A DNA stretch of 64,000 nt from Nemertoderma westbladi. Its lineage: Eukaryota; Animalia; Xenacoelomorpha. A model generated the notes under the pieces. That model saw only the letters and a program-made list of their open reading frames with translations. It did not search any database and was not told the origin of the DNA. The position numbers were made by a program, and so were the translations under genes. The stretch spans positions 1 to 64,000 of the forward strand of contig JAUCBJ010004814.1 in NCBI GenBank assembly GCA_032718475.1, written 5' to 3'. Shown in pieces: positions 8,730 to 60,430 of the stretch; position 1 is the stretch's first letter, and each line of letters opens with the position of its first letter.

Positions 8730-11700
8730 CTAAGGTGCCCCTTCTAACAGACAGCATTTCCCTACAGCTCTCCTGTAGGTTTTTCTGTCCTTCGCAACTA
8801 TCTTGCCACCTATCCGCACTTCTACCGATCGGACCCTTCCGTCCTCATCGGAGTAAGTGCCTACAACTCTCGCCAACCGCCACTGGTTGTTGATGATAGT
8901 ATCATCCGTAACGATTACGAGATCTCCCTCTCTTAACTCCCTATTCGGCTTCCTCCACTTGCTTCTTTTATGTAGCGTGGGTAGGTATTCCTCGACCCAC
9001 CTCCTCCAGTACTCTGCGCTAATTGCTTTAGCGACTTTCCAACTTTGGCGGGAGTGTATGTCGTCTGGATCTACACCCCGCATGTCGATGGTCGCTGGCC
9101 TTTCCATTAGAAAATGGCTTTGCGTTAGCACATCTAATGACTCAGGGTCATCATTCTCCGGGTATAGCCATCTGCTATTAATGACACCCTCACACTTCGC
9201 AAGTACTGTTCTCAAGACGTCCTCTGTGACCATATGGGTGTTCATTAATTTCGTCATGAGACGCTTCGAACTGCCCACCAGTCTCTCGACGCATCCTAGT
9301 GTATGTGGTGCATACGGCGTCCTTCTCTCCCACTTTACTTGTCGTCGTCTCATGGCTGCCCTGACTTCCTCCCCTTCCAAGATGTCCAAGGCCTCTGCCA
9401 TCTCGTTCTCTGCCCCCACAAAATTGGTGCCGTTGTCGCTGTATATCACTGCGATCGTCCCACCTTTATGGTCTCTAAACCTTTCTAAAGCATTAATGAA
9501 TGCTGATGCGGTTGAGTTCTTGGGAGAGTTCTATCCCTACCGCCCGTGTGTTGTTACATACGAAAATAATACCGTAGCATTTCTCCATATGCCGCATCAC
9601 CTTGATCTTTATCGGCCCGAACATGTCCACACCGCAATGCATAAATGGCTGGTTGTGCTGTCTTACCCTATTCGCCGGTAGTGGCGCCATCTCCTGTATG
9701 GCTCGATCCTTCTTTGCTCGTCGGCAGGTCTGGCACTGCCCCACTACCGCTTTTACCTTCTTCCTCAACTGCTTGACCCAATAGGTCCTCCTTATCACCG
9801 TGAGGGTTCGGTTGGTGCCCCCATGCAATATCGACTTGTGGGAGTCCCAGATAATCTGGTGGACTATTGGCGATCCTGTAGGGATGATGATGGGCTTCGG
9901 TGGTACGATGATACTATTGTTGTAACCCACCCTAGAGTTCATTACTAGAATCCCTCATCATTAAGTTGTGGTGACAGCGTGATCAGCTCGCTGTCCCGTC
10001 GAAGATGTTGTTGCTTACCGACGCGTTCCACCTCGTCGCAATAGTTCTTCCGTTGTTCGTAGCGGATGACTGCTTTGGCCGCTCCTTCCAGATCTATCGT
10101 TGCCCCGATCTTCTTGCCTTTGCCAACTCCCGCGAGGAAATTCCCGAAGGCTCTCCAGTACGCCACTAGTTTCTTGGTCTTATACCAACTAGAGCTGTAG
10201 CTGAGGAGTTTATCCGTCGGGTTATCGCATAGTTCTTGTTTTGGTTGCACGTCCCTAATCTCCCTCACCATCTGGGAGTATATCTCTTCTCCCTCTGAAT
10301 CTCCTTCTTCTCCCTCTGACACTACTTCTGAGCCCGGGTCCACCTTTCTCATCGGCGGCCAGGCCTCCTTATCGCTCAGAAATTGTGGCCCATGTTGCCA
10401 CAATACTTCCTTCTTCAAGAAAGTGTGGCGTACCACGCCCCTCGACAACAAGTCCGCTGGGTTCTCGTCTGTTGGGCAGTAGTGCCACCAGCCTAACTCT
10501 GTCGTCGCCCTTATTTCGTCCACTCTATTCGCAACGAATATTGGGTATTGCGTTTTCTCATTATGTAGCCAGCCAAGCACTACCATGGAATCCGTCCAGT
10601 AGTGTGTCTACACTATGTTTGGTATTGTATCCATTAGGTAGGTCGTGGCCCTAACTCCTAGTCTCGCAGCTGTCAATTCTAGTTTGGGAACCGATGCCGA
10701 ATCTGGTGGTGTTGACTTCGCCTTGCTGAAGGCGAGTCTGGGTTTATGAGCCCCCTCTCGTTGTACTAAATAGAGTGCTGCTCCGTATGCCTCTAATGAC
10801 GCATCGGAGAACATATGTAGGTCCAGGCTCGTCATGTTCCCATCCGGGAAATACACTCGCGGTATGCTGTATGTTCCCATCTGCTCCAGGCTCTCTGTCC
10901 ACTTATGCCACTGCTTTATAATCTCTTCCAGGACCTCTGCGTCCCACTCATCCTTTAATTTGTATACTCTCTTGAGTATCTGTTTTCCCGTGACTAGTAA
11001 TGGGGATGCTAGGCCTAGGGGATCGTATATCCTTGCTATGTACGATACATAGCCCCTCTTTGTGTGGATGTCTGCGCCCTCCTGGCTTAACTGGTACATC
11101 AGTTCATCTGTCTCTTTGTCCCACACGATTCCCAGTGCTTTCTGTTGAGACTCTATCCTCTTGTTTGCCATGTCCTGCCCCTTGGTTGTTGTGGGATTAT
11201 CCATGGTCGATTCAGGTCTCCTATCCTCTATCGCCTTGATAAATTCCTCAGAACTGGATTGGAATTTGGTTAGGTTAAAACCGGATCCCTTAAGGATGTC
11301 ACGAACCTCGCGCCCTGTGTCCAGCAGCTCCTTAACCGTATTTCCAGACTCCATCCCGTCGTCTACGTAGAAGCCGCGTCGAATCATGTCGACGGCTCTA
11401 GTGCTGCATTTATCTTCATTTCCCTTCACCGTGTCTCTTAAGGCCATAGTCGTTGTAAATGAAGACGACTTGGCTCCCATGTTCTGCACTATCATCTTGT
11501 ACGTCGGTACAATCGACGGTTCTTCATCGCCGTTGTACCATAGGAAGCGTTGACTATCGCTATCTTCTTCCGTTACATGGACTTGGTTGAACATGCCTTC
11601 TATGTCACAGGTGAAGGCGTGTTTCCCATTTCTAAATCTAAGTAGGACCTCTATCCCTGAGTTGTAAATGTTGGGACCCTCTAGCAGATAGTAATTTAGA

Positions 11701-12903
11701 CACTTTCCGTTGGTCTTTGCCGACGCGTCCACTACCATCCGTAGTTTACCTTTCTTTGGATCTAAGGCCACGTGGAGTGGCAGGTAATAGGTCCTATCCG
11801 TGTTTGGTTCGTCGACCGGTAACTCAACGGCCCATCCTTTCTCGACGTACTTCTTAATTGTCTTATGGATATACTCATTTTTCTCAGGGCTCCGTTTTAA
11901 CGTCTGCTTTAATTTGCGAAGCTTCGTAAGTACCATCCCTCTGTTGTCGGGTAACGGTAGCTTCGGTAGCTTCCAAACCATCCCTATGGTATATCGCCCC
12001 TCATCGCATGTCATCGATTCAATCCATGCTTTGTAAAGCCTGCTTGTCTTCTACCGAGGTCCCGACCCCGGTCTCCTTTAGTCCCTCAAAATCTTGCCTG
12101 AGCAGTCTCTTAAGCTGCTCCTCTGCTCTCTCATCACCCATTTCCTGCATGGTTCCCGCGAACATGCATCCTGATGTCTCCGACATCCTAAATGGTATCT
12201 TGCTCTTGATTGGGCCACTCAGCGTCCACCCGAATGGTGTCAATATCGCCACCGGGTCACACTGCTTGTCTTCGCCGAAGACCGTTTGCATTCTTTCATG
12301 GGCTGTTGGGCAGTCCATTCCTACTATGATGGATACCTTCCTAACGTCCACTTCTGGGATTGAGAAGTCAATGTTGTCCAGGAATTTATATTGCTCGACC
12401 TCGATGTTGGTTGGCCGCCTGGCATTGATATTAATTGACTCTATCACTTGGATGGGGTCGATGGTTGCCCCGTAGTCGCATCCCGGTGCCACCGCTGCAA
12501 TTGTGCACCATCCAGTCCTCATCTCCAGGATCTCATCTTTACTAGAGATGGTTGTTACCGCCATTCTACTTGGCCTCGTTCTCAATCCTATCTCTTCGGC
12601 CACCCATTCCTCGACTAATGTGAAGGCAGCTCCACTATCAACCAGCATCAGTGTGGTTACTGATTGATTGCCTTCTCCAATCACTCGCACAGGTACTACC
12701 CCAAGTAGCACTGTTCCTCTCTTCTTCGCCCCTACTGTGCTCGTTGCCATTGTTTGGCCCTTCCTTTGACCGAACTTGACCGGCGTCTCCTTGCATTGCC
12801 TAGCTCTATGTCCACTCATCACGCATCGCGAGCAGATCTCGTTTCTCGCCGCATATTCTACCTGATCTTCTCTAGGTAGCGCTTGCCAGTACCTGCAGTT
12901 CAT
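8730..12903 (-). pseudogene. pol: BEL/Pao pol: aspartic protease, RT, RNase H, integrase (several stops and frameshifts)
   Basis: PR LVDSGA (12019-12903); RT YYLPLH, LRMVVDAS, DIEGMFNQV, FYVDD and RH FSDAS...PKLEL (10608-12014); WTDS...FVANRV...NPADLLSRG (9945-10586); IN HHCC, GVDMFGP, SDNGTNF, GCVERLV, WRRWVEEYL (8730-9942). Confidence 0.95.
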
Positions 12904-15900
12904 GGTTTTATGAAGCGCATTTGTATGTAGCTGGCATTTGCTGTTTTGGTTGTAGCCGTCCTTATACAGTGCATCGCGTATCGCAGCTGTGTTTGTACCA
13001 AAGTCCCTACTATTCTTATTGCTTGGGTTCGGCCTACTGGACGTACTGGGGTTATATTTATTTGTGTTGTTATTTCTCCCCTGTCCGTTCCATGGTGTGG
13101 TCTTACCTTCGGCTACCTGTGGACTTGCAGTCCCCTGCGTCGCTGCGTATGGCAGTGATTGCCTTAGCTTTGGTAATGCGTTTGACGTGTTGTGCTCTGG
13201 TTTCGGTCTATGATAATCCGTCTTTGGTCCCTTTCCCTAGCTATCTTCACTATAGACTGGGTCGGTTATTAGTTCAGCTTCGTAATTCAAGAAGCTTGAC
13301 ATTTCTTCTAAACCCGGTTCCGCACCCTTTCTATCTCGAGTGGAGAAGGCGATTTTCCTCCACTTGTTGCGCAGCCAGCTCGGTAGTGCCTGCGCTATCG
13401 TGGTGAAGTTATTGGACGCGTTGAGCTCGTATGGCGCGTCTAGCGTCTTCAGCACGATTAGCGCCTTTTCGACTTTGTTAGCGAACGTCTTAATGCTAAC
13501 GGGATTATCCTGTAGGCCACCCGATGTTATGCCTCTCAGTGTCTGTCTGATGATCTTGGCCGGGTGCCCATATTCCCTGTCCAGTGCCCACCATGCTGTC
13601 GTGAAGCCGCCCTCTATGCCTTGATATTGCCTCACGATGTCGTATGCTGGGCCTCCCGTGTATACTTGCAGATATTTTAGGCACTCCGCCTGCGTCAACT
13701 TCTTTGTTAGTATTTCGTTACTATACATGCGCCGAAACTGTAGATATTCTTCCGGCCTACTCCCATCGAATTTGAATGGTTCCACGGGTGGTAACTCGAT
13801 ACTCGTTTTCAACGCATCGATCAACGTGGCCATCCCCATCGCCTGCGCTTCCAATGGGTTCGATGGATGCTGTATAGTTTCTCCTGTCTGGTGCGGTCCG
13901 TCCGTCCTATTTTCTGTCTTCCTTTGACTTGGGTATGTCATTGGGGGTAGCGGCCCCCTCCATATTTCTGTGTCGCACGACCTATTTTTATCCACGGCTC
14001 CCGTTGTTCTTGCTCCTATCGGGGTATATTGTTGATATTGTGATGGGGGAATGTCACCCTGCCCCCCCCCCCCCCCACCGGTATGTTCGGTACTGGGGTT
14101 GATGTTAATATATTGGGGCCCATGCACCTATCTGCAATAATTCCCCCCTCCCCTGGGTATATGTTATGTCCCTGCATGCTGTAGTCATACTGCTGCACTG
14201 GTAACGGTATAGGCCTATCAGCTTCTGGCCTACCCGCCGGTATGTACTCCGCGACTTCCGGGTTTAATCCCGTCGTCCGCGCTATCCTATCGCCTACATT
14301 GCCTCTGTCAGCATGGCCTATGGTATGTGCAGTAAGGCCTACAGTATGTCCTACAGTCTGCATGTGTCGCTCGGGATCAAAGTTTATTCTTCTCGAATAG
14401 TCCTCTCCGCGGCTACCGTATTCTCGATCGGTAGGTATATCCCGTCGGAAAGTTTCTCTTCAACCCCCTATACTGCTCTCATCTTCGTACCGGTACATCG
14501 CGTACCCCTCCATCGGCGCGTAATGCGCCTCGCCAGGTCGCATCTCTCTGGGGCGACAGCAATCTCCCGAAGTTCGACCCCACTGACTCTCCGTTCTCAT
14601 CTCGACTACCGACGGCTCACTATCCGTCCTCGCTCTTCTATCGTTCGCGGCGATACTTCTCCTACTCTCTTCTCCTCTTCTCCCTACAGTGCAATATTCC
14701 CGTTCATGAGATCTCTCGTCGACCTCCCGGTTAAATTCCACTACTCTTCTTCCCTCTTCTGATCGGGCTCGACGCTTCGTCCGCCCTCTCACAACGTCAA
14801 CCTGTCTCTCTCTGCTCGGTCGCCAGCCGTTGGGGATACTCGCAATCCCCCTATCATTCTCCGTCGCTGGGTGTTGCGGTTTACCTATTTCGGCCCGCGC
14901 ATTATCCGTTGACGCCTGTGGGGCGCTCTCTACCCCCCCTTTTCGCCGCTAACTCGCTGTAGCCCCCCCCCCCACTCGCCACATCTAACTTCGCTATCTC
15001 TCACCCTGCTACTATATCCCTCTCTAGTCGACACAATGTTCCTACTGCGGCTGGGTCCATTCATCCCCGCCTCTCTCTCCACCATTATTTGGCCTACCGG
15101 GCCTACTCTGGGTTGGCTCAACCCCGCCACCTCCTGCCTACTAACTACGTGGCCTACCAGGCCCCCCTCGGGTTGACTCAACCCCACCACCTCCGGCCTA
15201 CTAACTACGTGGCCTACCAGGCCCCCCTCGGGTTGACTCAACCCCGCCACCTCCGGCCTACTAACTACGTGGCCTACCAGGCCCATCCCGGGTTGGCTCA
15301 ACCCCGCCACCTCCGGCCTACTAACTACGCGGCCTACCAGGCCCATCCCGGGTTGGCCCAACCCCGCCACCTCCGGCCTACTAACTACGCGGCCTACCAG
15401 GCCCATCCCGGGTTGGCCCAACCCCGCCACCTCCTGCCCACTAACTATGCGGTCCATCAGGCTGGCTTCCTGATTATACATGCCCGATGCGTTCACATTA
15501 ATAGCACCACAGGCACCGCCATTGGTTAAGTCAATTAAATCTTGCACCCCAGTTAAATTATCTTGTGCACCCAAATTAGAAACGGAATTATTTTGTTCGT
15601 TCAAAATAAAGTTTTCCGGATTATTTTGCGCAATTGCGTTACTTAAATTATTTTGTAAGTTCGAATTCGGGTTATTATTTAAATTATTTGGATTATTTTG
15701 TGTAGCTACATTAATATTAGGATTACTTCCTACATTAACATTAGGATTACTCGGGTTTAAATTTAAATTACTGCTACCAGGTAAGATATTTCCTGCAATA
15801 AAGGTTTGGTTAGAGTTCTCCAATACGGTACTATTAATATTAACGACATCTACTGTAGCATTATTATTACCCCCCCGCCCGTACGGTCACACCAGTTTTG

Positions 15901-17397: not shown

Positions 17398-17937
17398 TGT
17401 GACGGGATCCAGGAAGGATCCCGGTTTATCCGGTTTGTCAGTTCACGCGTCCCCGCCGTGTGTGAAAGATAAAAGAGTTTGCGTTGTTCGTTGTATGTAA
17501 TATTGGGATATATAATACAGATATAGATAATGGTGGACAAAAGTTATTATTGTATATGGAAGGTGGGAGATGGTAATTGAAGTCCCAGTACTTCCCTAGC
17601 TAAACTATTTCTACTGTAACACCAATAATACTGAGATAACTGAATGAGATGATTACTGCCAACTGGTTATATTGCACGGGTTGGCCTTGTTGCTCTACCT
17701 AGCCGATGCCTTTCCCCCCTCTGATTGGTTGATACCCTTGTTGGCGCCCTTTGGAGTGTTCCCGTTCACTCCACCTATTCTCTCTCGGTTAGGGGTTTGG
17801 CCCCTGACCCTCATTGTGTTTCTCCTTCCCATTTTGTTGGGGTGACACGAGTTATTGGTTGCCCAATCTCGTGGCCCCCAATATTGCTTATCGGCTTACT
17901 TTGTGGGTTTGGGTTAGCGGGATTGAATAAGCTAACA
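17398..17937 (-). repeat. 5' LTR of BEL element A
   Basis: Direct repeat of 4295-4834, upstream of gag on the minus strand. Confidence 0.95.
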
Positions 17938-28554: not shown

Positions 28555-29735
28555 TGTAAAGGCTTTTGCGGAATTAGCTGGTTATTTTCCCCGCAAAGTA
28601 CTCTGTAGTTGTTTTAACGGACATAAAAAGCCGTTTCCTTACTGTACCGGTGTTTTAGTGGACATAAAAGTCATTTCTTATGTATGTGTACTTTAGCGGA
28701 CATAACTAGTGATTTTATGTCGCAATAAGCCAAATACTCTAAACATCGGAACTCCGATGACGACATCTATCAGCTGTGTCCACGTGTAACTTTTCTTTGT
28801 TCTTTGTTCGTTCTTTGTTCGGTCGACCAATCAGAGCGGTTTTCACTCTGTGTTGGAGATTGTATACAGAAACTCATGCAATTCAGTCAGTGTGTGTATC
28901 TTTCTAAGCCCATAACACCGGCTTAGGATTCTTCTGTACTTCTGTGGAAGTTTCAGACTTTAGCAAAACATTAGTAGGCTTTGGTCATAGAAACGTATAA
29001 CTGTTATCAAACCACACCGCACCACATATCCTAATCATATTGTCAACTATAAACACCACATTTTTACTGCTATTTACTGTCGGTTATTAATTATATCAGT
29101 TGATGGAATATTGTTATATTTGGATAATATCGATAAATAATCATAAAACCCCCAATCTTCTTGATATACTGAAGGTAAGAGACCGGTTACATATAACAAT
29201 TGCGACTTACATTAAAGTGGTTTTGGAGTGAATCTAATGCTATTTCATAGGCACTACATGAGTCGGTTGCTGTTCTCTTTATATGTGACTAAAATTAGTG
29301 AAGGTTGGCAGATCGGTGTGCAGCATTGTGCGGTAGTGTGCATGATTGTGACTGATAACAAAGCATCTCCTAAAGAATGCGCTTTATACGTGAACCAATA
29401 GCCATCCCGTTGTGTCTAGTGTAAGTCATAACTCTGTTTACATACTTAGAGCGCCACGTCCTAAAGGAACTGTTAATATTTCCCGAAAGTGAATAATATT
29501 GGTTAGAGATTATATATTAACAATCAGTCGAATAATACAGTAGGCCTACACCGCAATAAGGTCAAAGCTTCCGAATCCAGTCTCCCGGGTATATCCAGCG
29601 GGTGAATGGTCGCGCATAGACAGGCTTCGGCTAATGTAGTGTATCAAATACTCGTCATAGGCTAAAGTCGATTTATAATCTAGAAGACATCTAAATTTGG
29701 CAGGTTAAACTGCTAAAGGTCTGAAAGCGCGAACA
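28555..29735 (+). repeat. 5' LTR of element C (1181 bp)
   Basis: Near-identical to 43824-45019, which carries an extra 15 bp. Confidence 0.95.
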
Positions 29736-35762: not shown

Positions 35763-36989
35763 GGGTGACTCTAACAGGCGGTGGCGGACTCGTGAGGGTC
35801 TGGGGGCACGTTAAATTGTTGGTATAGTGCAGGGGAGTTACTGAAGGCCCTCGTGTCTAGCGAACCATGAATCAACATGGTGCCGTGGTACCGTCTAGTC
35901 GGCCTGTTGCCGTACTGCCAGTCCTGTACACAGTAGGGGTGGTGGCTTAGTGTGATCTGTGGTTTATGCGGTCTATGTGGTAGGTCTATGTTTGGTATGT
36001 ATGAGTTGACCAGACTCTTTGCTGTCTCCAATCGGTTGCCGAAACGTGTCTTTTCCCAGGGTAGCACTATTGGAATGGAGGTGTTGCATCGGAATGGGCA
36101 GGATTCTGATGATTCTGTTGGTACTACTATTGGAATGGAGGTAGCACCCGGAATATCCGCTGCAAGGAGGGGATGGTGGTAGTGTGGTCCGAGTGAATGA
36201 TACTCTGGAATCTGTGGTTTGTGTGTGGACGATCAGTGGCAGTTTGCTTGAGCTTTCTGTTGCTGTGGGTACGTGGTATACGTGAGTGTATGTATGGCCA
36301 CTGCGAGTGAGTATGGGAACCCTTGCCGGTTGGTCTAGACGCCGCTGGTATTAGTAGGACCCTATCTTTACAGCGCCCCAGCATACTTTGTGCACACAAA
36401 GTTATTTTGCCCTGACGGCAAAATAAGGTACTCTCGGCTCTTTTAACAGTCGATACAATTTAGTCCCCTCTGATTTTGTCCCCGATTTTGTCTTTCCCGA
36501 TTATGTCCTCTGTGTGTGCATGGTATGTGTCAGATTTTGTGTTTACCATAGTGTACTTGATATTTTGAACATCTATTGAGTACACGTGTACAGTGACTGG
36601 TAAGTGGTTACTTGTTCCTAGCTTTCGAGCTAGTCAGTATTGTTTGCGGAACCGATTTCCCCTCAATACTGCCAGTGAGGCGGGTGAAAACGTGTCAAAA
36701 TTCCATGTTGGGTAGCGCAAGCCCACTTGGGACAAGACCGTCGGTTTGGCTCAAGGGCGACCTTGATGCTCGATCGCTATCGACTGGTCCACCCGCCTGT
36801 TGACTCTCTGAGTTGGCTCAATGTACAGTCAGGCCACAGTAAGATGACAGTAGGTGAACTTTGTGCTATTCGGCTACACACGACGAGCTGTGCCGGTGTG
36901 ATCGGGGGATTGAAAATTGAACCCGGGAAGCATCGGGCTACCCTCCGGCCCGGTCTGATAAAAACGGAGTCGGACTGGCCCCAAGGGTA

Positions 36990-43745: not shown

Positions 43746-43823
43746 CTGTTTAGAGTATTTTTATATTTTAGAAACTGTGATTTTTTATATTTTATAGAAT
43801 TAAATCCCATTTTCTGGGAGTGG

Positions 43824-45019
43824 TGTAAAGGCTTTTGCGGAATTAGCTGGTTATTTTCCCCGCAAAGTACTCTGTAGTTGTTTTAACGGACATAAAAAGC
43901 CGTTTCCTTACTGTACCGGTGTTTTAGTGGACATAAAAGCCATTTCTTCTGTATGTGTACTTTAGCGGACATAACTAGCGATTTTATGTCGCAATAAGCC
44001 AAATACTCTAAACATCGGAACTCCGATGACGACATCTATCAGCTGTGTCCACGTGTAACTTTTCTTTGTTCTTTGTTCGTTCTTTGTTCGGTCGACCAAT
44101 CAGAGCGGTTTTCACTCTGTGTTGGAGATTGTATACAGAAACTTATGCAATTCAGTCAGTGTGTGTATCTTTCTAAGCCCATAACACCAGCTTAGGATTT
44201 TTCTGTACTTCTGTGGAAGTTTCAGACTTTAGCAAAACATTAGTAGGCTTTGGTCATAGAAACGTATAACTGTTATCAAACCACACTGCACCACATATCC
44301 TAATCCTATCAATGCAAATCATATTGTCAACTATAAACACCGCATTTTTACTGCTATTTACTGTCGGTTATTAATTATATCAGTTGATGGAATATTGTTA
44401 TATTTGGATAATATTGATAAATAATCATAAAACCCCCAATCTTCTTGATATACTGAAGGTAAGAGACCGGTTACATATAACAATTGCGACTTACATTAAA
44501 GTGGTTTTGGAGTGAATCTAATGCTATTTCATAGGCACTACATGAGTCGGTTGCTGTTCTCTTTATATGTGACTAAAATTAGTGAAGGTCGGCAGATCGG
44601 TGTGCAGCATTGTGCGGTAGTGTGCATGATTGTGACTGATAACAAAGCATCTCCTAAAGAATGCGCTTTATACGTGAACCAATAGCCATCCCGTTGTGTC
44701 TAGTGTAAGTCATAACTCTGTTTACATACTTAGAGCGCCACGTCCTAAAGGAACTTTTAATATCTCCCGAAAGTGAATAATATTGGTCAAAGATTATATA
44801 TTAACAATCAGTCGAATAATACAGTAGGCCTACACCGCAATAAGGTCAAAGCTTCCGAATCCAGTCTCCCGGGTATATCCAGCGGGTGAATGGTCGCGCA
44901 TAGACTGGCTTCGGCTAATGTAGTGTATCAAATACTCGTCATAGGCTAAAGTCGATTTATAATCTAGAAGACATCTAAATTTGGCAGGTTAAACTGCTAA
45001 AGGTCTGAAAGCGCGAACA
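43824..45019 (+). repeat. 3' LTR of element C (1196 bp)
   Basis: Preceded by PPT-like GGGAGTGG (43816-43823); direct repeat of 28555-29735. Confidence 0.95.
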
Positions 45020-45024
45020 GGCAT

Positions 45025-46001
45025 CTCTCTCCAGCAGGCTATGTATATTTTCTTGGTACTTTAGTATGCGATATTATATTGGTAATATCGCATATCCAAT
45101 CATGATTCGTAAATCATGCGAATTGGAGTGCGCTCCAAATCCACGGAAATTCAATCTAATACTGGATGTGGGGTGGAATTTTTTTCTTGGGGCAAGTTTT
45201 GCGGACTGGCCCGCCCTCTGGGTCTGTTCTCACTATCCACCCTTGGTACATCTGCGAGCTAAGTTGTACTGAGGTATCTGGCATCTCTGTTTAGACTATC
45301 TCCCTTCTTCCTCTCTCGATTTTCTTTTGGGTATTATTGTCCAATCTCTTCACTACCTCGCTTCTTTAGTCCCATAGGACTCATCCACTGCTCAGCTCTC
45401 CACCCTACACATGAATCTTGCGCCCTTCAACTTTCCCCAAACTCTCGCACATCCTCACCATATTCTTCTCATACTCAACTCAACCCCATATTATTCTCAC
45501 ACTCTACACTCCTGTCAGGTCTCACATATGTGTACACCATGTAATTGAGTCCCGTGATTGTCTCATCCTCTTGTTTCAATCAATTAGTCCCCAGTCCCAG
45601 TAGCTAATTGGAAAAGGTTATATCTGACTATAGTACATATGTGGTGGTTTTACGCTACGATTGAATACTTTATATCTTATTTATATTGTTTATAATTAGG
45701 GCGGGAATATTTTACTTTAGTCTACAATTCCGGCGCTGCCTTCCAGGCATCCTGATACTTTCTCGTCATTAAATGATGTCAGCGAACCACATCCTGAGTG
45801 TCAGTCTAGGATTTTATCCCGTCCTTCCAGTTCATCGTAGTTCATCTCTTTTATCCTTGTCCTGGCTTGGATGCTCCCTGCCATCCCATTTGTTCTTAGT
45901 TGCGGATGTATGGCTTTACTAATCCCTATTATCTGTTCCCTGAGCATGGTTGTTACCGTCTCTTGATAACTCTTCGCTGGTGGTCCCATCAAGTGTCCCT
46001 C
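45025..46001 (-). mobile_element. 3' internal region of the older A-family element (right part)
   Basis: Contains the A-family motifs GTGGGGTGGAATT (about 45168), CCAGTCCCAGTAGCTAATTG (45591) and GCCTTCCAGGCAT (about 45738) in the same order as element A. Confidence 0.7.
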
Positions 46002-48537
46002 TGTGATGGGATCAAGGATCCCGACTGGACTGTTATAGTACGCGTCACCGTTCCTGCTTGGGGATCGTGCTAATCAGCTTTGGCCGAGGCTGTAGGGGAA
46101 AAACAATAAGAGTTTGCTGTCGTCTTTCGGTATTAATAAATACATGCGGTGATAGCACAATGTTAATAGTAAAGCAGAAATACAGATAATATTGACTGAT
46201 GAATAGTTTCCAGTATGGCGGTGTCGTCCAATAACTATAACCGATCTGTCCTAAACTGAATAACACAACTGATGCACTAATCTAACAACCTGAGATAATA
46301 TATGATTGATACATTGAATATTGCTTCACCTCTTACACTACTTTGGCATTCTACCCAATGGATGCTTTCCTGTTCCCTATCACGTGCTTCCCTTCCCTCT
46401 ATTGGCTAACATACTACTTGCCACCTTGGCGCTCTCTGGGAGTGTTTCCCCTCCGCTGCTAGCCTCTACTAGCCATATTCCCTCCGAGGTGGTTTGACCT
46501 CTAACCTCTCTTTCTATGTGGCTTCGGGGCTTGTGTTGCCCCCCCCCCCCCCCCCAATGTTGATTATGATACGAGATTGATATTGGTAATCTCGTATCTC
46601 CAACATATTGCTGAAAATGCCACTAGTCACATTTTCTGGTGGGTAATGAAGTGAAATGAATCTGCTTACACTCCCCCCCCCATGCTATCTTCCCAGTGAG
46701 AGGATAGCATCAACCTCAAGCGCGCTACAATTCCGCTGGAACCCAATCTACTATCGGGTGTGGGGTGGAGTTATTTTCTCAGGGTAGGCTTTCCAGGCCG
46801 CCCCCCTTTGGGTGTGATATTGCTACCCCTCCTTGGTGCAATCGCAACCTATGTTGCACCAAGATATCTGACGTCTCTGTTCGAGACAATTGTGGACTCC
46901 TCTCAGACAATTTTATAAAACTTTGCTCTAAACTCACTCTATCCTCACTTCACTCTAACCCATATGGACCCTATCGCCCCTTACTCTCTCTCTCTCACAG
47001 CTCGCTCCCCACATTTGAATTGCACCAGTCTACTTTCTGCGCACGTCAACACCTCTCCGTACCTCCCCCATGCTCCTCCTATACTCAACCCACACTTGTT
47101 TCACCCTACTCACTCCTGACAGGCCTCACCCTACCCTTTTGTGCCATCGCACTAAAGAAGTATGATTCGTCTAGTGTCCCGTCCTCCTGTCATAGTCAAT
47201 TGGTCCCCAGTCCCAGTAGCTAGTTGAAAAAAGGGTTATATATGACTATAGTAATTACTCTGATTATATTGATTCTAATTATATTCTATTGATTATTACA
47301 TACGTACATACTAATTGCACTTTATTAATTTTTGCACTTAGGAGTTCGTATTACTTCACATGTGGTGCCTTCCAGGCATCCCCACATCTCCCCCTCCGAG
47401 TCCTAGTTCGCTCCTCCTGTCTTCAGGAACCATCTCAGTTCCTTCCCTCTATCATCGTCCTGTCTGGGTCGCTTCCTTCCCTCTGGCTTGTCCTCTTTGA
47501 GACTCCTCATTCTCGCCGTTACCGCCTTGCTAATTCCCGTGGTTGATTCCTTGGGCGCTGGTGTTACTAGCTCCCGATAACGCTTTGCAGGTGGCCCTTC
47601 TGAATGCCCCTCCTGCTTCCCCCTGGTAGCGTCCCACAAGATCATCTTCATGGTTCGCTGCACGTGCTCCACCAGAAAGTCTCTAATCTCTCCTCTATCC
47701 TCCGGCGTCCATCTATCCAAATACCTCCGCATGTTGATAACTCATCCATACGATGCCATCGTCGCTACCTCTTGGTATGTAAATGGAAGTAAGTCTCCTC
47801 TTAATAATTTCCAGATGGGCCTCCTGATTGATGTTGAAGAAACCCCACCGGAACTCCTGGGCCTTCATTCACTGTCGCGTCATAACACCAACGTCGGCCC
47901 ACTCCTCGAAGATCTTAAACTTCTCCTCGTCGTCCATACAGTCGCACTGGCGCCCATAGTGCCCTCGGAAGTTTCAATTTGAGCAGCGGTTGTGCAACCT
48001 CGGACACGCTCCCATCCTGTGGCTCGACTCGCGGCAGTAGAAGCAGCTCGTCCCCTTCTGGAATCGATACAAATAGCTCTTTTCCTGGTGAGTCAGTCTC
48101 CTGCAGTAATCACAGTCTTTTGCCCCAAGCGGTCTCCTATGTCTGTGGAGCAGTTGGTAAGCAAACTTCTGGACGTTAACGTGCCTGTCCATGTCTACAT
48201 CCTCGGCTCGCCTCGGCATTGTCTCTCCAAACACTACCCTTGGTGCCATTCCTGGTTGCTCGCCCAACCTGATGGTGCTCCCCGCAAAATCCATCACAGG
48301 CTCCTCGTGCACCCAGGTCCGCTTGCTGGGTTTATCCCAGAAGGCCCTCACCCTGCTGGCCATCACCACTCTCCCACCAACTCAGTCCGTATCTGAGTGG
48401 CCAATCCTCTTGATGGGCGGCATCTCCCCGAACTCGTTGTCATCCTCCTCCCCCGCTGGGACTGGGTCCAGGCCCGGTATCCCGGCAGACCCACTGTGTC
48501 CCTTCCCACCTTGGCTTTTGCCCATAACTTTCCATCC

Positions 48538-48945: not shown

Positions 48946-51900
48946 TTCCATCCTTCCTGTTCTCTCGGTCTCTTCCTCGCGAAATCGCCCTCAGAGCCCG
49001 CTGGCATGGGCATTGCTTGCAATCCTGATGTCAACTGTTTTGGCGATTCTTCTGTAAATCCTAGCTCCTCCCCCAGAAACTCGCCCGAGCTCCCTGATCC
49101 CCACCTCAGCTCGTCCAAGTTCTGGGCCTCAAACCCATAATCATCTCCCCTAGCCTCCGCCTCTCTTTTGTCTGCCTCCCTCCTTTCTCATCTAGCAACT
49201 TCTTCCAGTCGATTTTCCTCAAGTCTATCCGCTTCCAGCTTCTCCCACTAACTCTATCAGCTTCTCTGATATGGTGTATCCAACTCCCTGTCTACTAGAT
49301 GCTGGCAGTTGTAGTACACCGACTCGCCATCTTGAGCGTCTTGAGCGCATCGATAAGTGTTGCCATACACATCGCCTGTGCTTCCAATGGGTTCGACGGA
49401 TGCTGTACAGACTCTTCTGTTGGGTGCGGTTCGCCCGTCGGGCCTGTTGATTTTTTCTGTGTGGGATATATCATTGGGGGTAACGGCCCCCTCCATATAT
49501 CCGTGTCGCACGATCTGTTCTAGTCCAGGGGGTTCAATGTTCTTGTCCTCGGTTGAGTATATTGCTGATATTGTAATTTGGGAATGTCACCCCCCCCCCC
49601 CCACCACACCGGTGTTGTGTTTGGTACTGGGGTTGATGTTAATATATTGAGGCCCATACACCTATCGGCAATAACTCCCCCCTCCCCTGGGTATATGTTA
49701 TATCCCTGCATAATATAGTCATACTGGTGTGCAGGTACCGGTATAGGCCTATCCACTTACTGGCTACCTACCGGTATGTACGCCGCGGCTTCCGGATCTA
49801 ATCCCGTTGTTTGCGCTACCCTATTGCCTACACTATCTCTTCCAGCATGGCCTATAGTATGTGCAGTAAGACCTACAGTATGTCCTGCAGTCTGCCTGTG
49901 TCCTTCCGGACCGAAGTTTAATCTTCTCGAATATTCCAAGAAGTCCTCCCCACGACCACCGTACTCTCGATCGGCAGCTACATCCCGTTGGGAAGTTTCT
50001 CTTCGATCCCCTCTCCTGTCCTCGTCCTCATGCCGGTACACCTATATACGGCATACCTTCTCCCGGTGTATAGTATATCTCGCCAGGCTGCGTCTCTCCA
50101 GGGCGACGGCAATCTCCTGGAGTTCGACCCCACTGACTCTCTAACTCCATCTCTACTACCGACGGTTCGCTGTCCGTTCTCACTCTCCGGTTGCCCGCAG
50201 CAACACTTCTTCTATTCTCTTCACTTCTTCTCTCTTCAGTGTAGCGTTCCCACTCATGAGATCTCTCTTTGACTTCCCGGTTAAACTCCACTGTTCTTCT
50301 TCCATTTTCCGACTGGGCTCGACGTCTTGTTGCTCGCCCGCTCATGACGCCAACCTCTCTCACTCTAGCAGGTTGGATGCTGCTGGGGATATTCGCAATC
50401 CCCCTACTATTCCCCGTCGTCGTGTGCTGTGGTTCACCTAACTCGCCCCGCATATTATCCTCCGATGCTTGTGGGGCATTCTCTGCCCCCCCCCCCCCCC
50501 CACTCACCACCTATTACTTCACTACCTCCTACGACCTCCTCGACGCCCTATCTCTACTGCGGCTGGGTCTATTCACCCCTGCCTCTCCCTCTATCACTGC
50601 GTGCGTGGCCTTGCAGGCTTCCGTCGGGTTGACTCACCACCACTCCTCCCTGCCTAACTACGTGGCCTTGCAGGCTCCCATCAGGGTGACTCACCCCTGC
50701 TACTCCCTGCGTACTAACTACGTGGCCTTGCAGGCTCTCGCTGGTCGGACCACCTACGTTTGCTGCGTTCGTATGAATAGCACCGTCATCAACAATATTA
50801 CCGTCTAAATAATTTGGATTATTTAAATTATTTTGTTCGGAATTCGGATTATTATTTAAATTATTTTGTATATTTAAATTAGAATTATTTGAATTACTTT
50901 GCATATTTAAATTAAGATTATTTGGATTATTTTGTATATTTGAATTTAAATTATTATTTGAAATATTTTGTGCGTTTAAATTAGGGTTATTATTTTGTAT
51001 ATTTAAATTAGAATTATTATTTTGTATATTTAAATCAGGATTATTTGGATTTAAATTATTATTACCAGGTAAATTATTTCCTGCAATGAAAGTTTGATTA
51101 GGGTTGTCTACTACGGTACTATTAATATTAATGCCTTCTAACGTATTATTATTACCCCCCCCCCCCCTTCCATCCCGCCCGTACAGTTACACCAGTCTTG
51201 GGTCTGTCGTTTGGTGCCTGTAAGTGGGGTATTAACAAATGTCTCCATTACTTCTGGCTCCTCGTAAATACTACCCGAGCCAGCCCCACTCTCAGATAGT
51301 CCCAACTGCGCCAGTTCTAATCGGCGCTTTTGCTTAGCTTGATATTGCATTTTCCCCTTAACTGGGCATGCATATCATCCCGCATACGTTTCCCCGCTCT
51401 CTCTCTCTCTCTCTATCCTCTCGCAGACATTGGTCGGCCAACTCTGCCTCCCTCGCCTCCTGCTCTCTATGCTCATTCTCTACTTTCGCCTCTCGCTCTC
51501 TACGCCCATTCTCTACTTTCGCCTCCCGCTCCTCACGCTCTCTAAATTTTCTCTCAACCCTCTCAGCCCTCTCTTTTTTCTCTCTCGCCAGCTCTCTCTC
51601 TCTCTTTCTCTAATAGTGTGGTTCCCTCATCCAGCTGCCTCTCCAACTCTTTCTGGTCTAGCACCACTATGTCTAGTTGACACGCCAGATCTATCTTAAA
51701 CACCCTTCTTGTTTTTGCGGAGGATGTAGCGGACTTATCGTTTGCGACGGACTCCCATCACCTCTCTGTCCTACTAACTTTTCCCCGCTTTCTGGGGTTC
51801 TCGCTAACTGACAAGACCGAATCCTCGGGGTTAACCTCGGGTTCGCCCTCGTGCGGATCCGCCCAACCCACTAACTTAATTCCTATAGCATCCACTAAGT

Positions 51901-52536
51901 ACGGCCCTACATACACTACTTCAGGCTCCATAACCCCGGATCGCCACAGTTCGAATAGTTCGGTGGTGACTCCCACTCACTCTCTCACTCGCCAGTTCTC
52001 CATGTCCAAAGCGGACTAAATACCAGAAATGTTCGTTAGACTCACCTAGCCTTTGGTGTAATTTAGGCTGGTCTACCGTTCCTCCCTCTCTGGCCTCCCT
52101 CAGTAGTTTCTTGGTGGCTTGTAGGCCCGTCGTAGCCGATTTCTCGTCCCGACGTCCTCTTCACCGATATCTCCTCCTCCTCTTCTCGTTCGGCGTCGTA
52201 CCGGCGGCCCCACTGTCACCATTCCGGTGGGCCGTCCATCGCCCTCGGCATGTGGCTGGCCGGCAACTTCGGTATTCCGACCGCCGTTGTGCATCGACTC
52301 GTCCCTGTATCTTTCATCCGTCATGGTTGACGGCTGCCCTCTGCTTGGGGTACCGGATCATCCCTCGTCAGCGAATCCGGCTTCGCAGGTCAATACCGTC
52401 TCGTCGCGGCCTCGCGGATTGTTTGGTTGGTGTCATCCGGGGTCCGCGGCGGCATCCTCTCTCCCTCTGATAATCGGGGTTCCCCTTGGCTCATCTTTAC
52501 TTTACTTTACTGCAGTCACAGTTTAGTAGTTTTAGG

Positions 52537-52547
52537 CAGTTGTTTAC
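52537..52547 (-). promoter_or_regulatory. Non-tRNA primer-binding-site position of B (GTAAACAACTG), complementary to LTR site 52771-52781
   Basis: Exact 11-nt reverse complement within the adjacent LTR; no TGG. Confidence 0.65.
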
Positions 52548-53289
52548 TGTGGCGGGATCGAAGATCCCAACCGGGTTGATGTTTTAGGCATCACCGCTCT
52601 ACCACAGGGATGCTGGGATGGTGCTAAATAACTTGGCTGAGGCCGTTGCAGGAAAACAATGAGAGTCCGGTGTTGTCTCTTTGATATCATAAAATAACAA
52701 TAGCACAAAAACTCGTGGTAGAAGTACAGATATGATGTGTACCGTTATGTTGTATCAGTAAACGATGATGGTAAACAACTGATACCAGTCTGCACTAACT
52801 GAGAAATTAACTAAACTGAGTCACAAACTGGTAGCAGGAGATAATATATGATTGATATACCAATATTGCCACACACCTACGCTACCTTGGCCTGTTACCT
52901 AACGAATGCTCTCCTTTACCCTAATCTCCCACTTGTCACCCTTTCACCCTCTGGGAGTGTTTCCCCCCTGCTGCTAGCCTCTACTAGCTGTGTCCCCTCC
53001 GAGGTGGTTTGACTTCTAACCTTCCTTTGTGTGTGGCTTCGGGGTTTGTACAGCCCCCCCCCCCCCCCCCCCCCCCCCGAATGTTGGTTGTGATACGAGA
53101 TTAATATTCCTAATCTCGTATCTCCAACATATTGCTCAAAAAATGCCACTGCCCTATTTTGTGGTGGGTAAGCAAGCGGAGTTGAATCCGCTTACAATGT
53201 CGGCCAGTAATTTCTTTCACGGTGGAAAATCAGTTCAATCAATTTAAAATATAAATTGGGGAAGATAGTAAAATTGAGCATGGCTTAAA

Positions 53290-56200
53290 ATAATATATTA
53301 CATAAATATAATAAATATAAGTATAGTTGAGAGTTGGAGTAAGGTTTATTCAATGGGAGAGTCAGCAGGACAGTTCCGATAGAGGAGGGCTGAGGAGGCA
53401 GTCCATAGCATGTTAGCGGTTCCTGCAAGGTCCATCGCAGAACTGACAGATACAGCTGTCTGAGAACTCGTGGAATGGGGTTGGGGTGCGACAGAGTATG
53501 TGATGGAACCCATGAGCCGTTGTCCTGGTAACAAGCGATCTGTTCCTTTGACCAGGCCATTTCCATACGGATGTGGAAAAAGCCGGTCCGCGTAGAAAAC
53601 CCTGAGCTTGGAAATTGGCGATTCGTTCGCGACGGTGATCTTTATAAAGTTCTAGAACATCGCTATCGAAAGTTTCTGTTGACCTGGAGTATATATCTAC
53701 AACAAATGAGTTCTTACCAACGAGTTTCATAGCTAATGTCGATGATGCCGATATATGTTTCCCTAACATACGCTTTATGAAGGTGGATTTGATTTTATCA
53801 ATTTCTAGCAGATGTGATAATTTCAGATAAGGAGCCATTTCATTCATAGAGTATGTTGCCATAGGTGATATTTTCGATTTGAATATCTCAATTGCAGTTT
53901 CAACAGAGAGGAGATGTAATAGATTAAGTGATCCTATGATACCGTATGATTTTTTCTTTTTGGATTCCATATGTTGTGTGAAGCATAATGATGGCTGTAA
54001 TGTAACAAATAGGTATTCATAAGAGTTGGTAATACTGACTTTGTTGCCTCCATAGATAAACTGGTCAGCGTCACATAATTTCCCACCGTTTCAGAATTTT
54101 AGAATTTTGGTTTTAACTAAGTTTACCTCCATACCATTTTCGATACACCAGGTATATAAAACATTGAGTCCGCGTTGTATATCATTTCTGTTACTGGAGT
54201 AGAATACCAGGTCATCCGCATAGAAAATAAATTTTAGGCAGGATACTAATTGGCGTAGTGCATCTGCTAGATCGGAGATAAATATGATAAAACATGTAGG
54301 CGAGAACGTATCTCCTTGCAGAACTCCTCTTAGTTGCTGTATAATACCAGATAGACTGAGTCCGTCGTAGATACGAATTTGGTTGTGTAGTAAGGCCCTC
54401 ACTATATTATATAGCTTCCCCTTTATCCCATGTAGATATAATTTCTGGAGTAGCTTCGCACGGCTCACGAAATCAAAGGCCTCACAAAAATCCACAAATG
54501 CGGCATATGTTACTCGGTTGTGGGGTGTGTTTGCTTTGAAAGAGTTTGCTATGTCTGAAAGGAGGATTTTGATGGCCTGGGCCGTGGACTTTCCATGGAT
54601 GAAACCATATTGCTCTGGTGGGAATTGTCTGGATACGTACTGTCGGACACAGTTATTTATTAGTTTTGTGAAGGTTTTTAAGAGAACACTGAGGAGTGCA
54701 ATGCCGTGGTAGTTGTCGGGATTGTTTTCTGAACCTTTTCCCTTGTAAAGTATTATTATAATGCTTTCTAGCCAGGTCGTGGGTAGCTTCGCAACATGTA
54801 AGCACATATCAATGTGAGTAGAACAAGGATATAAGGTATTGACTGTTTAATGTGCTCATAGTATATTCTGTCTGGTCTGCAGGCCTTTCTGTTTGCAGCA
54901 TCGTTAACAGCCGCTCGGACTTCCTCATGGTTCGTTATACCATTCACCATTGTTGCACTCTGTTTCAGCCATGGTGGGTATTTCTCCGCAGTTAGGTGGG
55001 TTGTTGTCGCAACCGAGTAGGTTCTGGAAATTGGATTCCAGATGTTGAGCGGGAATGGGTGCAATGGAAAGTGTATAATCTTTAAATAGGGACCATGGTG
55101 TGATTTCCGCCTGTTTTATCTTTTTAAGTATTGCCTCGTTCTCGTATGTTTCTCTTTTGGACTTGATGAGTTTTTTATATTGTTTACGGGTATTCCAATA
55201 ATATTGAGGTATACCCGTAGTGCTGTATGTGTGCATAGAATCCAATAAGTTCGCCTTCACAATTCTGCACTCATCATCAAACCACGGTTTATGATGTTTC
55301 CTTTTATTTTGTTTCAAAGCTTCAGCGGAGTCTATAATTAGCTTAGTTAGCTTAGTAGTTGCCTAATCAACGTCTTTAAATTTCAAAAGATTATCAATTA
55401 TGACAGTAATTTCACCATATTGATCAAGTTTGCAAATATCTATTTTCCGGTTTAGGGGGGGGGGGGGGGGGGGTGGCCTTTTTAGTATGGCTTGGTGTGG
55501 ATTTTCTCGGGAAGTATTAGTCATTGAGATACTCTGGTGCTTTCTAATTGGTTTATATAAAACGTCGATCTGAGGTGGCTCTGTTGGAAGGGGGGTGGGA
55601 TACTTGATATAGAATAAATCGATGGTGCTGTTACCCTGGGGCGATATACAGGATATGTGTGGATATCCACCGAGTTTAGAAGAATAAACCCGAGGTTCTG
55701 TAGGTGGTCCGTTAGATCCGTGCCACGATTCCATGCATCAAGCCGACAGTTAAAGTCGCCACCAATAGTTATCGCGATGTTTTTATATGCCATTGTGAGA
55801 GCCTGATTCAGAGTCAGGATAACCTCTTCGATAGGTACATCAAGAGGAAAGTAAAATACGATGTAGTATGACTGCTTCGTTTCCACAATAATAAACTTAG
55901 TAGATTTATTGATTAGTTCTGGTTTTAGTTGGGGTTTGCATAAAATGATTAAACCGCCTTGGGGCCGTCCTCTCTGTGGTTTTACTGCGGGTTGCGAGTA
56001 CATGTAGCAGCCGGGGAAGGGTTTATGGTCAGGGGGGTCTGTCACTACCAAAGTTTTAGTTAGCATTACAACATCGCAGTTATCTAGGAGTTCCGATCCG
56101 TTTCCGTTTATGGTTATGTAGTTCAGCCCTTCCACATTCCACATAGATACCTTTGTGTGTCAGATCTAGGCAGGGTTCGGAGATGCACGTGCGCCTTGAG

Positions 56201-56720: not shown

Positions 56721-58689
56721 ATTATAAATACAAGTACAGCAGTAGGTAGGTAAATCAGTAGTCCAGTGCATATATTAGTGCGCAATGCAAAAAAAATGAA
56801 TTCCAGTAAACATATGTTCTCAACATATTATAGTGTAATAAATAGATATGTAAAGGCATCTCCAATGTCTCGGTTATCACTCATTAATTTGTTTGTTTTG
56901 GATATCACTCATTAATTTGTTTGTTTTGTTTTGCAGGCAGATGTCGCGCAATTAGTCTGACACCGAGAGACACAGAAAAGACCAGCAAAACCTTTACCCT
57001 ATTAAACCCGGGGGGGGGGGGTCAATATGACCCTTTCGTGGATTTTTATTATACTTCTGAAACAAACGCAGTTGTGAATCTGAAATTTTATGACTTTTCC
57101 TAAAAATCGATTGTCTTCCTAGTAGTGAAAACCGTTTTCAAAAATATTTGGTAGTTTTCGAGTTATAGCACCTTTTTTTAACCCTACTTTTGGCACTTTT
57201 TTGAGACGTTTTTTGAAAATTACATTTGATTAAATATTAATTGTAACACCTCTATTTTTGATTTACACCGGTTTTTTGGTGTTAGCAATTGGATGGAATT
57301 CATATAAATTGATTTAGAAATTTCAAACTTGTTTTTTTCGGCGGGTGCCAAATTTTGGTGCCAGCACCAAATTTTGAAATATTTCAATTTTGTAAATTGA
57401 TTATTTGAAACTTGTTTTTTCCGCAATTGGTGTTTTTTGGGGTTCTGGTTTCGATGAAATATATACGAGTTGCACCAAACGTATCAAACTTGTATTTTTC
57501 GGTGCTGTGTGCAAATTTTGGTGCTAGCACGAAATTTTGAAAATCCATTCAATAGATAAAATTGCTTGTGACAATTTATTTCTTGCATTTTAAAGGTTTA
57601 TGGCTGTTCTGAATTCAATGGAATATATAATTATCAAACTAGACATCTCAAACTTGTATTTTTCGGAAGTGGGTGCAAAATTTGGTGCTAGCACCAAATT
57701 TTGAAAACCACCAAATCTGTCAATTGATTGTGTCATCTTGTTTCTTGCGTTATACGGGTTTGTTAGGGTTCTGAATTCAATGGAATCAGTAAAAATTTCA
57801 TAAGAGTTTTCAAACTTGTATTTTTCGCTGGTGGGTGAAAATTGTTGTTTTGCACCAAATTTTTGAAAATGAGTAAATTGATCAGTAGATAGTATCATCT
57901 TGTTTCTTGCGTTATACGGGTTTATGAGGGTCCTGAATCCAATGGAAATAATTAAAACAGCACTGGACATCGCAAACTTGTACTTTTTGGTGATGGGTAC
58001 GAAATTTGGTGCTACCCTGCAAACCACCAACGTTAATCTAACGTTGGGTTTATGTTAGACATTCGTTAAAAAATGACAGTTAGAATTTAACCATAAACCT
58101 ACGTTAAAATACGTTAGAATTCTGTCAATTTTTAACGTTAATTTTTTACAGTAATTATACGTCAAAAATTTACAAATATCGGACAATACCATATTTTTTA
58201 ACGTTACTTTAACGTTAATTTTTAACGTTAATTTTTTACAGTAATTATACGTTAAAAATCAACAGAGATCTGACATTTACAAATTTTTTAACGTTGATTT
58301 AACGTTAATTTTTAACGTTCATTATTAACGTTAATTTAGCATTAAAATACATCAGATTTTAACGATGATTAGTGAATCACTTAACTGATTCATCAATGGA
58401 TAACATATCTATGTCTAGCTGACCATCCGCTGACTTTGTTCATTTCTTATTTTGTTAAATTTTTATGTTACTTGTGTAATTTTTTAAATATTATTTTTAA
58501 ATATTTGCCTTACTAGTCAGCATCTGTGTACCAGTACCAAGCGTACAGTATAAAAGTACAGTAAGTAAGCGTACGGTAGAAAAAGGGTGGAAAGAAGGAT
58601 CTAGAAGATGCTAGTGGGGCTGTAGCCGATAGCGAAGATGAATGAATATTATATATCGATACAAACTTGGCCCTAATTACGTTACGGAT

Positions 58690-59910
58690 AACTTTATGAA
58701 ACTGGATGTACGTTTCGGTTAACTTTATGAAAGTGGATGTACGTTTCGGTTAACTTTATGAAACTGGATGTATGTTTCGGTTAACTTTATGAAACTGGAT
58801 GTACGTTTCGGTTAACTTTATGAAACTGGATGTACGTTTCGATTAACTTTATGAAAGTGGATGTACGTTTCGGTTAACTTTATGAAACTGGATGTACGTT
58901 TCGGTTAACTTTATGAAACTGGATGTACGTTTCGGTTAACGTTATGAAACTGGATGTACGTTTCGGTTAACTTTATGAAACTGGATGTACGTTTCGGTTA
59001 GCTTTATGAAACTGGATGTACGTTTCGGTTAACTTTATGAAACTGGATGTACGTTTCGGTTAACTTTATGAAACTGGATGTACGTTTCGGTTAACTTTAT
59101 GAAACTGGATGTACGTTTCGGTTAACTTTATGAAACTGGATGTACGTTTCGGTTAACTTTATGAAACTGGATGTACGTTTCGGTTAACTTTATGAAACTG
59201 GATGTACGTTTCGGTTAACTTTATGAAACTGGATGTACGTTTCGGTTTACTTTATGAAACTGGATGTACGTTTCGGTTAACTTTATGAAACTGGATGTAC
59301 GTTTCGGTTAACTTTATGAAACTGGATGTACGTTTCGGTTAACTTTATGAAACTGGATGTACGTTTCGGTTAACTTTATGAAACTGGATGTACGTTTCGG
59401 TTAACTTTATGAAACTGGATGTACGTTTCGGTTAACTTTATGAAACTGGATGTACGTTTCGGTTAACTTTATGAAACTGGATGTACGTTTCGGTTAACTT
59501 TATGAAACTGGATGTACGTTTCGGTTTACTTTATGAAACTGGATGTACGTTTCGGTTAACTTTATGAAACTGGATGTACGTTTCGGTTAACTTTATGAAA
59601 CTGGATGTACGTTTCGGTTAACTTTATTAAAGTGGATATACGTTTCGGTTAACGTTATGAAAGTGGATGTTCGTTTCGGTTAACTTTATGAAACTGAATG
59701 TACGTTTCGGTTAACTTTATGAAACTGGATGTACGTTTCGGTTAACTTTATGAAAGTGGATGTACGTTTCGGTTAACGTTATGAAAGTGGATGTACGTTT
59801 CGGTTAACTTTATGAAACTGGATGTACGTTTCGGTTAACTTTATGAAACTGGATGTACGTTTCGGTTAACTTTATGAAACTGGATGTACGTTTAGGTTAA
59901 CTTTATGAAA
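58690..59910. repeat. 31-bp tandem satellite, about 39 copies
   Basis: Unit AACTTTATGAAACTGGATGTACGTTTCGGTT, head-to-tail without spacers. Confidence 0.97.
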
Positions 59911-60430
59911 CGGATGAGTCCGGTAGCAACCTACGGGTCTCTGAACTATAGATCTAAGCCTAGCCTCCCATTGATTAATAAAAATTCCACACATTTCCAA
60001 TTCCGAATTCCAAAAATTTCACATTTCTAAAGCCTACTTTATAGTGTTATAGAAATTAAATTCAGAATTTCATACAAGAAAAAATCATACATAATTATTG
60101 ATTTTTTCATTGATCAATTACACGAGATTATGAATTTAAGCTTCTGGTTTTAACACTTGAATTTGTTCAAAATTACATTTCACTGTATGTAACTGGCAAT
60201 TTGAAAATCTATCGTAATGTGATAATAACGTGTATTATATTAATATTATATCTAATACATAATTAAAATGTATACATAATTATTATATGTAATATTGATT
60301 AATCATAAGTAATGTATTAATTGTGAGTTAATACAATATAATTTTGTCAATATTAAATGGCAAAGTTGTCTTCGGCCGTTAGGCCAGGGAAAACATTACG
60401 CACAAAGTCTGACGACTTGTTTCCAGATAA

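Follow-up and report, generated by a model that had tools for sequence, protein, structure and literature searches.

How does a Bel/Pao retrotransposon start reverse transcription when no tRNA-type primer-binding site (PBS) follows its 5' LTR? Replication in this group is poorly understood and is described as tRNA-primed, the ICTV profile giving an 18-nt PBS for tRNA-Arg or tRNA-Gly (PMC8742986). The question is raised by a 64,000-nt stretch of the Nemertoderma westbladi genome (contig JAUCBJ010004814.1, positions 1 to 64,000; the window), in which three elements, A, B and D, lack a TGG tRNA-type site after the 5' LTR; such a site is present in two control elements, L095 and L096. Our analysis of the sequence suggests that in the Bel/Pao elements A and B a 9-11 nt segment of the element's own LTR replaces the tRNA at the PBS, and that self-priming of reverse transcription is likely.

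LTR-PBS pairing in elements A and B

Element A spans 4295-17937 on the minus strand and, at 13.6 kb with extra open reading frames (ORFs), exceeds the 4.2-10 kb range of the Belpaoviridae (PMC8742986). It is a Bel/Pao element by its Pfam domains and homologues: DUF1759, the protease-RT-RNase H-integrase order, Peptidase_A17 and DUF5641 are all present, and the best RT matches are about 35% identical. The domain set, TG...CA LTRs, 5-bp target-site duplication (TSD) and purine tract are those of canonical Belpaoviridae, from which A, B and D differ in lacking the TGG-type PBS. Four of the five flanking bases match in A and all five in D, whereas B has no TSD. Two ORFs upstream of gag (14933-17389, minus strand) are common to A and B and have no Pfam match; one is charged and coiled-coil-like, the other N/Q-rich with 60-nt repeats. 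Further A ORFs lie downstream of the integrase (6307-7562, minus strand), the second of which is common to B (75%). The extra 3' ORF of A has no Pfam or PDB match, and in the first of these ORFs we see by eye what we take to be a faint resemblance to a 3'-5' exonuclease.

Element B matches A in ORF1, at the beginning of gag and in the 3' part. It has no pol, and A's protease, RT, RNase H and integrase find no match in it, which points to an internal deletion. Since its LTRs are only 74% alike in part and it has no TSD, B is probably a chimera in which a deletion has joined two subfamilies. A purine tract (46671-46681) precedes its 3' LTR, and a fragment of a non-LTR retrotransposon lies directly upstream of its 5' LTR.

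Table 1. Window coordinates of the features discussed in the text
Feature	Position	Strand	Remarks
A gag-pol	8733..14127	-	stops and frameshifts; DUF1759, aspartyl protease, RT, Peptidase_A17, integrase zinc finger, DUF5641
A PBS position GTAATTGAA	17389..17397	-	preceded by CACA; no TGG
A 5' LTR	17398..17937	-	540 nt; 98.7% identical to 3' LTR (4295-4834)
A LTR complement TTCAATTAC	17573..17581	-	55/10,000 shuffles
A outer-helix arm	17594..17606	-	13 bp with 17364-17376; 21/1,000 shuffles
D 11-nt complement of own PBS (29736-29746)	28997..29007	+	13/10,000 shuffles; anatomy different
B 3' LTR	46002..46670	-	74% identity with 5' LTR over ~380 nt; no target-site duplication
Counterpart site in B 3' LTR TAGTTATTGGAC	46226..46237	-	homologous; matching PBS lies outside the window
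B gag N-terminal fragment	49337..49661	-	
B ORF1 region	51602..52464	-	49-53% identity with A's upstream ORF
B PBS position GTAAACAACTG	52537..52547	-	adjoins 5' LTR directly; no TGG
B 5' LTR	52548..53196	-	649 nt, TGT...ACA; contigs of related copies end at 52548
U5 hairpin GGGATC-loop-GATCCC	52554..52568	-	just before LTR end; common to A, B and B's 3' LTR
B LTR segment complementary to PBS	52771..52781	-	11 nt, AC end, then C; 5/10,000 shuffles; helix in MFE and centroid
TCAGTT over B site	52777..52782	-	position not conserved in A or B's 3' LTR
Two upstream TCAGTT motifs (-21, -38)	52797..52819	-	alternative candidate start region; putative initiators by consensus
Possible B outer-helix arm	52810..52818	-	9 bp with 52519-52527; 675/1,000 shuffles, not significant

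The minus strand of B reads TATCAGTTGTTTACCATC at 52784-52767 and CACA followed by GTAAACAACTG across the LTR end at 52548, and the PBS (52547-52537) is perfectly complementary over 11 nt to 52781-52771, as an earlier sequence-only reading of this locus had noticed. On the same strand A reads TTCAATTACCATC (site 17581-17573) and CACA followed by GTAATTGAA (17397-17389), which pair perfectly over 9 nt. The reading had proposed that the chance of such a match be computed. When anchored perfect complements were sought in 10,000 dinucleotide-shuffled LTRs, matches as long proved rare (Table 1), and they stayed so when offsets of 0-4 were allowed (19/10,000 for B and 146/10,000 for A). With G-U pairs and offsets to 6 permitted, 3/300 shuffles match B's score and 4/300 match A's; the empirical background along the window reaches 11 nt at 0.18-0.22% and 9 nt at 0.74-0.79% of positions. 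The pairing is a real, non-chance feature. Short AT-rich matches do arise by accident and B is a probable chimera, but chance or an assembly artefact is very improbable in the face of the shuffle tests, the strict-rule controls and the comparison among families (see below), and contigs from other runs cover both the LTR/PBS region of B and its 46002 junction. Of 184 variant rows in the read data, in which such variants are sparse, the 40 listed include none inside either B 11-mer. The 3' LTR of B predicts a PBS beginning GTCCAATAA; in a blind test of this prediction, the loose ends at the LTR end were mixed.

Each PBS fits its own LTR only, since the cross-pairs (A PBS with B LTR, and B PBS with A LTR) reach 4 nt each. 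Aligned on the common AC, the two elements differ at four of nine positions, changed on both sides, which bears out the claim that both halves differ between the relatives. Positional homology of the two sites is supported by pairwise global alignment, which places both at TTACCATC (score 116.5, a value reached in 0/500 shuffles), but not by MAFFT. In addition, the 11 nt neighbouring A's site on the upstream side resemble the site of B's 3' LTR, so that the site may have moved to a new position instead of undergoing base-by-base change. Co-change of the LTR site and the PBS between A and B is thus shown, and base-by-base compensation is not certain. Because homology hinges on the aligner, the A/B pair, which the reading had called the strongest internal control, is not the cleanest one; the evidence from other families is far stronger.

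A fixed register of pairing among Bel/Pao relatives

From 459 Bel/Pao RT loci in metagenome contigs, the best 80 were taken as relatives; they fall into 49 families. In eight of these the position of the 5' LTR end follows from a direct repeat, without recourse to pairing, the end being degenerate in L034. L030, whose repeat ends at the contig end, was left out of this set, as were further loci whose repeats either reach a contig end or are not LTRs. All eight families carry an own complement of 10-15 nt whose helix runs from a GT in the PBS to an AC in the LTR. The complement is contiguous in three (L022, L034 and L076; 10-12 nt). None of the eight has a tRNA-type site, a TGG occurring in L056 only within the self-matching sequence. 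The register is fixed throughout: the GT of the PBS lies 0-5 nt past the LTR, and the LTR segment ends in AC with the next base unpaired. By hand count, 14 of 18 families have C here, and the base never pairs. The resulting ACC(A) resembles a tRNA 3' end and may, speculatively, be a vestige of one.

The pairing is also specific for the own LTR. In an 18-by-18 matrix, a match of at least 9 nt between PBS and own LTR is found in 17 of the 18 families, although 8 of the 18 had been located via the match itself and are circular in this respect; only 17 of 306 cross pairs reach at least 9 nt, 16 of them inside one subclade with a common PBS. The two complete TGG-type Bel/Pao elements among 12 further loci (L095 and L096) have own complements of at most 6 nt. 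The Bel/Pao retrotransposons L093-L104 lie on contigs filed under bacterial genome assemblies, most likely as eukaryotic contamination. RT trees, from which near-identical copies within a family and loci whose RT match was short had been left out, unite 16 self-complementary relatives in one clade (100/98) and place the TGG-type pair elsewhere. Element A forms a long branch outside both groups without a settled position, so that extending the mechanism to A and B relies on the anatomy they have in common with these relatives.

Long-range pairings in the leader are common in retroelements, and the helix could instead serve packaging, dimerisation or translation control, with a tRNA fragment or other host RNA priming at or near the site. 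We consider this improbable: the helix starts precisely where the PBS lies and keeps the fixed GT/AC register, the PBS differs between families and tracks its own LTR, and the TGG-type elements lack the pairing. Taken together, the Bel/Pao domains, the shuffle tests, the own-LTR specificity and the register of the relatives make self-priming the likely function. The idea that selection keeps the RNA 5' end paired with the PBS is supported for the LTR-PBS pairing itself, which is kept in 16 other families and set off by the two tRNA-type controls, but not for the 11-mer as the RNA 5' end (see below).

Predicted LTR introns and the possible assembly of the complement

In the other five repeat-defined families (L026, L038, L056, L082 and L083) the complement lies across a predicted intron. 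Read by eye, the partial match starts right after a polypyrimidine-YAG, and the missing part lies upstream, before a GTAAG. A loose search demanding only GT and AG gave perfect spliced complements of 10-15 nt in L017, L020, L026, L038, L056, L062, L082 and L083 (dinucleotide controls of this search are uninformative where a contiguous match exists); a second 10-nt match in L017 was treated as chance. Although only GT/AG was demanded, GTRAG donors occur in seven of the eight loci in which splicing gave a better match than the unspliced sequence. L083 has a non-consensus donor, and its 3' LTR lacks the site.

A strict rule was then framed, requiring ACA, 0-5 nt and GT at the LTR end, a match of at least 10 nt and a GTRAG...YAG join. 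Applied to the 80 loci it returned, from 1,013 forward candidates, 18 spliced loci (9 families) and 6 contiguous loci, or 23 of 80 loci overall; the 57 loci without a match include many that are incomplete. The reverse-strand control gave 0/3,555 spliced and 1/3,555 contiguous matches, and four wrong motif pairs gave 0/1,013 each. The rule added three new families (L013/14, L072 and L086), and L069 is probably of the spliced type, with its donor cut off. L075 holds contiguously the junction sequence that is split by a predicted intron in L062, L026, L083 and L086. The presence of the same junction in contiguous and split form, and the interleaving of the two forms on the RT tree, suggest repeated precise loss or gain of the intron. 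The PBS was also considered as a general splice donor and rejected, several families reading GTTC, GTTT or GTCA there.

These observations raise the possibility that, in a broad group of Bel/Pao elements, host splicing of an LTR intron assembles the PBS-pairing end of the primer and the spliced LTR RNA primes unspliced genomic RNA, through which the intron is passed on, A and B being intron-less descendants or a parallel solution. Reverse transcription would then be gated by splicing. To us the case for this proposal and the case against it weigh the same. In many relatives the LTR segment would thus be built by host splicing, and A and B would carry it ready-made. For the intron to be passed on, either the 3' LTR copy or the entire template RNA would need to escape splicing, and a spliced RNA would act as primer in cis or in trans. 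If true, a splice-built primer would tie reverse transcription to the host spliceosome and pose the puzzle of how an LTR intron outlasts the RNA intermediate.

Searches for a splice-built complement in A and D failed. In B, the TCAG followed by TT at the site could itself be a splice acceptor, since a YAG stands where the relatives have acceptors and weak donors, located 95-117 nt before the site, allow a spliced match of 10 nt. We regard this as doubtful at best: the region has 9/20 pyrimidines and three upstream AGs, against 12-16/20 and at most one AG in 12 relatives, the B 5' LTR has no GTRAG save its first bases, and the unspliced match is longer (11 nt). It is most likely that B carries the segment ready-made.

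Transcription start, leader folding and the proposed primer

The initiator is a core-promoter motif of the TCAKT type at the transcription start; TCAGTT had been put forward as its arthropod-type consensus. The reading of the sequence alone had given weight to a perfect TCAGTT overlapping the B site. The motif is indeed present (52782-52777), but it is one of three copies within 45 nt, and its role as the start site is not supported by comparison, as the overlap is missing in A and in B's 3' LTR. The copies lie at -38, -21 and -1 in B, at -35 and -22 in B's 3' LTR, where the site itself reads TATAGTT, and only at -62 in A.

These positions bear on a version of self-priming modelled strictly on Tf1, which overlaps with the reading we favour: the B RNA would begin with the TCAGTT that overlaps the site, and the primer would be the first 10-11 bases of that RNA. 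This is the mode of Tf1 (PMC7175516, in part), the motif overlaps the site, and folding from starts 0 and +1 gives pair probabilities of 0.97-1.0. Such a geometry is nevertheless unlikely, because it is the upstream TCAGTT that is shared and because both the outer helix of A, which requires RNA 13-25 nt upstream of the site, and the spliced relatives require upstream RNA. Where the complement is split by a predicted intron, transcription must begin upstream of the donor. An outer helix reaches p < 0.03 in 4 of 16 own-element tests (A, L013, L017 and L022, but not B or 11 others). The initiator overlap in B is probably incidental.

Folding of the 5' leader, which had been suggested as a check, recovers the B helix in both the MFE and the centroid structure (270-nt leader, z -2.58). 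Mean pair probability is 0.9-1.0 from starts +1, 0, -20 and -60 and 0.21-0.39 from -37; as the helix forms from four of five starts, folding does not select the start site. The A helix is weak (-7.3 kcal/mol, pair probability 0.02-0.61). When the spliced leaders of eight relatives were folded, the helix appeared in four (0.72-1.0) and not in the other four, and the unspliced part formed it in none. A check for the three-duplex pretzel of Tf1 found the U5 hairpin, the remaining flanking duplexes differing between folds.

Under the self-priming reading, transcription would start upstream of the LTR segment, in B probably at the TCAGT cluster 20-40 nt before it, and folding of the leader would bring the segment onto the PBS beside the U5 hairpin. 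A cut just 3' of the AC, likely made by the RNase H of RT by analogy with Tf1, would leave a 3'-OH there that could prime minus-strand DNA; the B segment is accordingly a predicted candidate for the 3' end of the self-primer. The primer would be a longer 5' fragment rather than the first 11 bases. Rfam gave 0 matches, and hence no known ribozyme, and ARAGORN found no tRNA genes in the window.

Self-primed reverse transcription has been described for Tf1/sushi and Tcn1 elements of the Ty3/gypsy superfamily in passages of PMC7175516, PMC4600332, PMC10085805 and PMC6317226, and in Tf1 the RNase H cuts after base 11 (PMC7175516, in part). As far as these passages go, A and B resemble the Tf1/Tf2/Tj1, Tf1/sushi and Tcn1 groups in having no tRNA PBS, a U5 hairpin beside the PBS, and a stretch of about 11 nt in the LTR-derived RNA that is complementary to the bases immediately following the 5' LTR. 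The Tf1/sushi elements, however, have a Ty3/gypsy chromovirus pol, whereas A and B are Bel/Pao, A by Pfam and homologues. Moreover, the Bel/Pao complement is apparently internal to the leader rather than at the RNA 5' end, holds to the GT/AC register at a spacing of 0-5 nt, and is split by a predicted intron in many relatives. In the TAR lineage of plant Ty1/copia elements (Houba, Osr-1), self-priming is likewise predicted from an LTR-PBS complement of at least 10 nt; this lineage belongs to another superfamily and kingdom, and the relevant passage mentions no intron (PMC6317226).

Within Bel/Pao, the Cer7-type Bel elements of C. elegans are said to supply a primer RNA of their own, a tRNA-like segment of the internal region. 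An element-encoded primer is common to both cases, but here the segment lies in the LTR. No mention of Bel/Pao self-priming or of a spliced primer was found in the literature searched, though Repbase entries, supplements or subscription papers may contain one, and the portions consulted of PMC3118150, PMC554778, PMC3601003, PMC5443660 and PMC8220671 held no passage on Bel/Pao priming. tRNA-free priming would enter a third LTR superfamily, with primer-end coordinates that are exact and testable, and a splice-built primer would also explain why annotation tools see no PBS in some Bel/Pao elements. Among viral contigs no Bel/Pao RT was found; a search there for the U5-hairpin pattern turned up 12 GC-rich matches whose complements did not exceed 8 nt, and these were taken as chance.

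The third Bel/Pao element, D, makes a weak case for self-priming. Its LTRs (28555-29735 and 43824-45019, about 1.2 kb) are bounded by a perfect 5-bp TSD, but its complement is 739 nt away from the LTR end, lacks the GT/AC register and never formed in folding. D (28555-45019, plus strand) contains gag, a protease-like region and an RNase H piece, has no match to A's RT, holds further insertions, and was itself inserted into the 3' region of another A/B-like element (45020-46001).

Other repeats in the window include a pair of 860-bp inverted repeats (20906-21767/31100-31964), repeated terminal-inverted-repeat elements with 162-bp subrepeats (25589-27647/56988-62797), broken RT and endonuclease fragments of non-LTR retrotransposons on the minus strand (31544-32404 and 53416-56159), and a 31-bp tandem array at 58554-59916.
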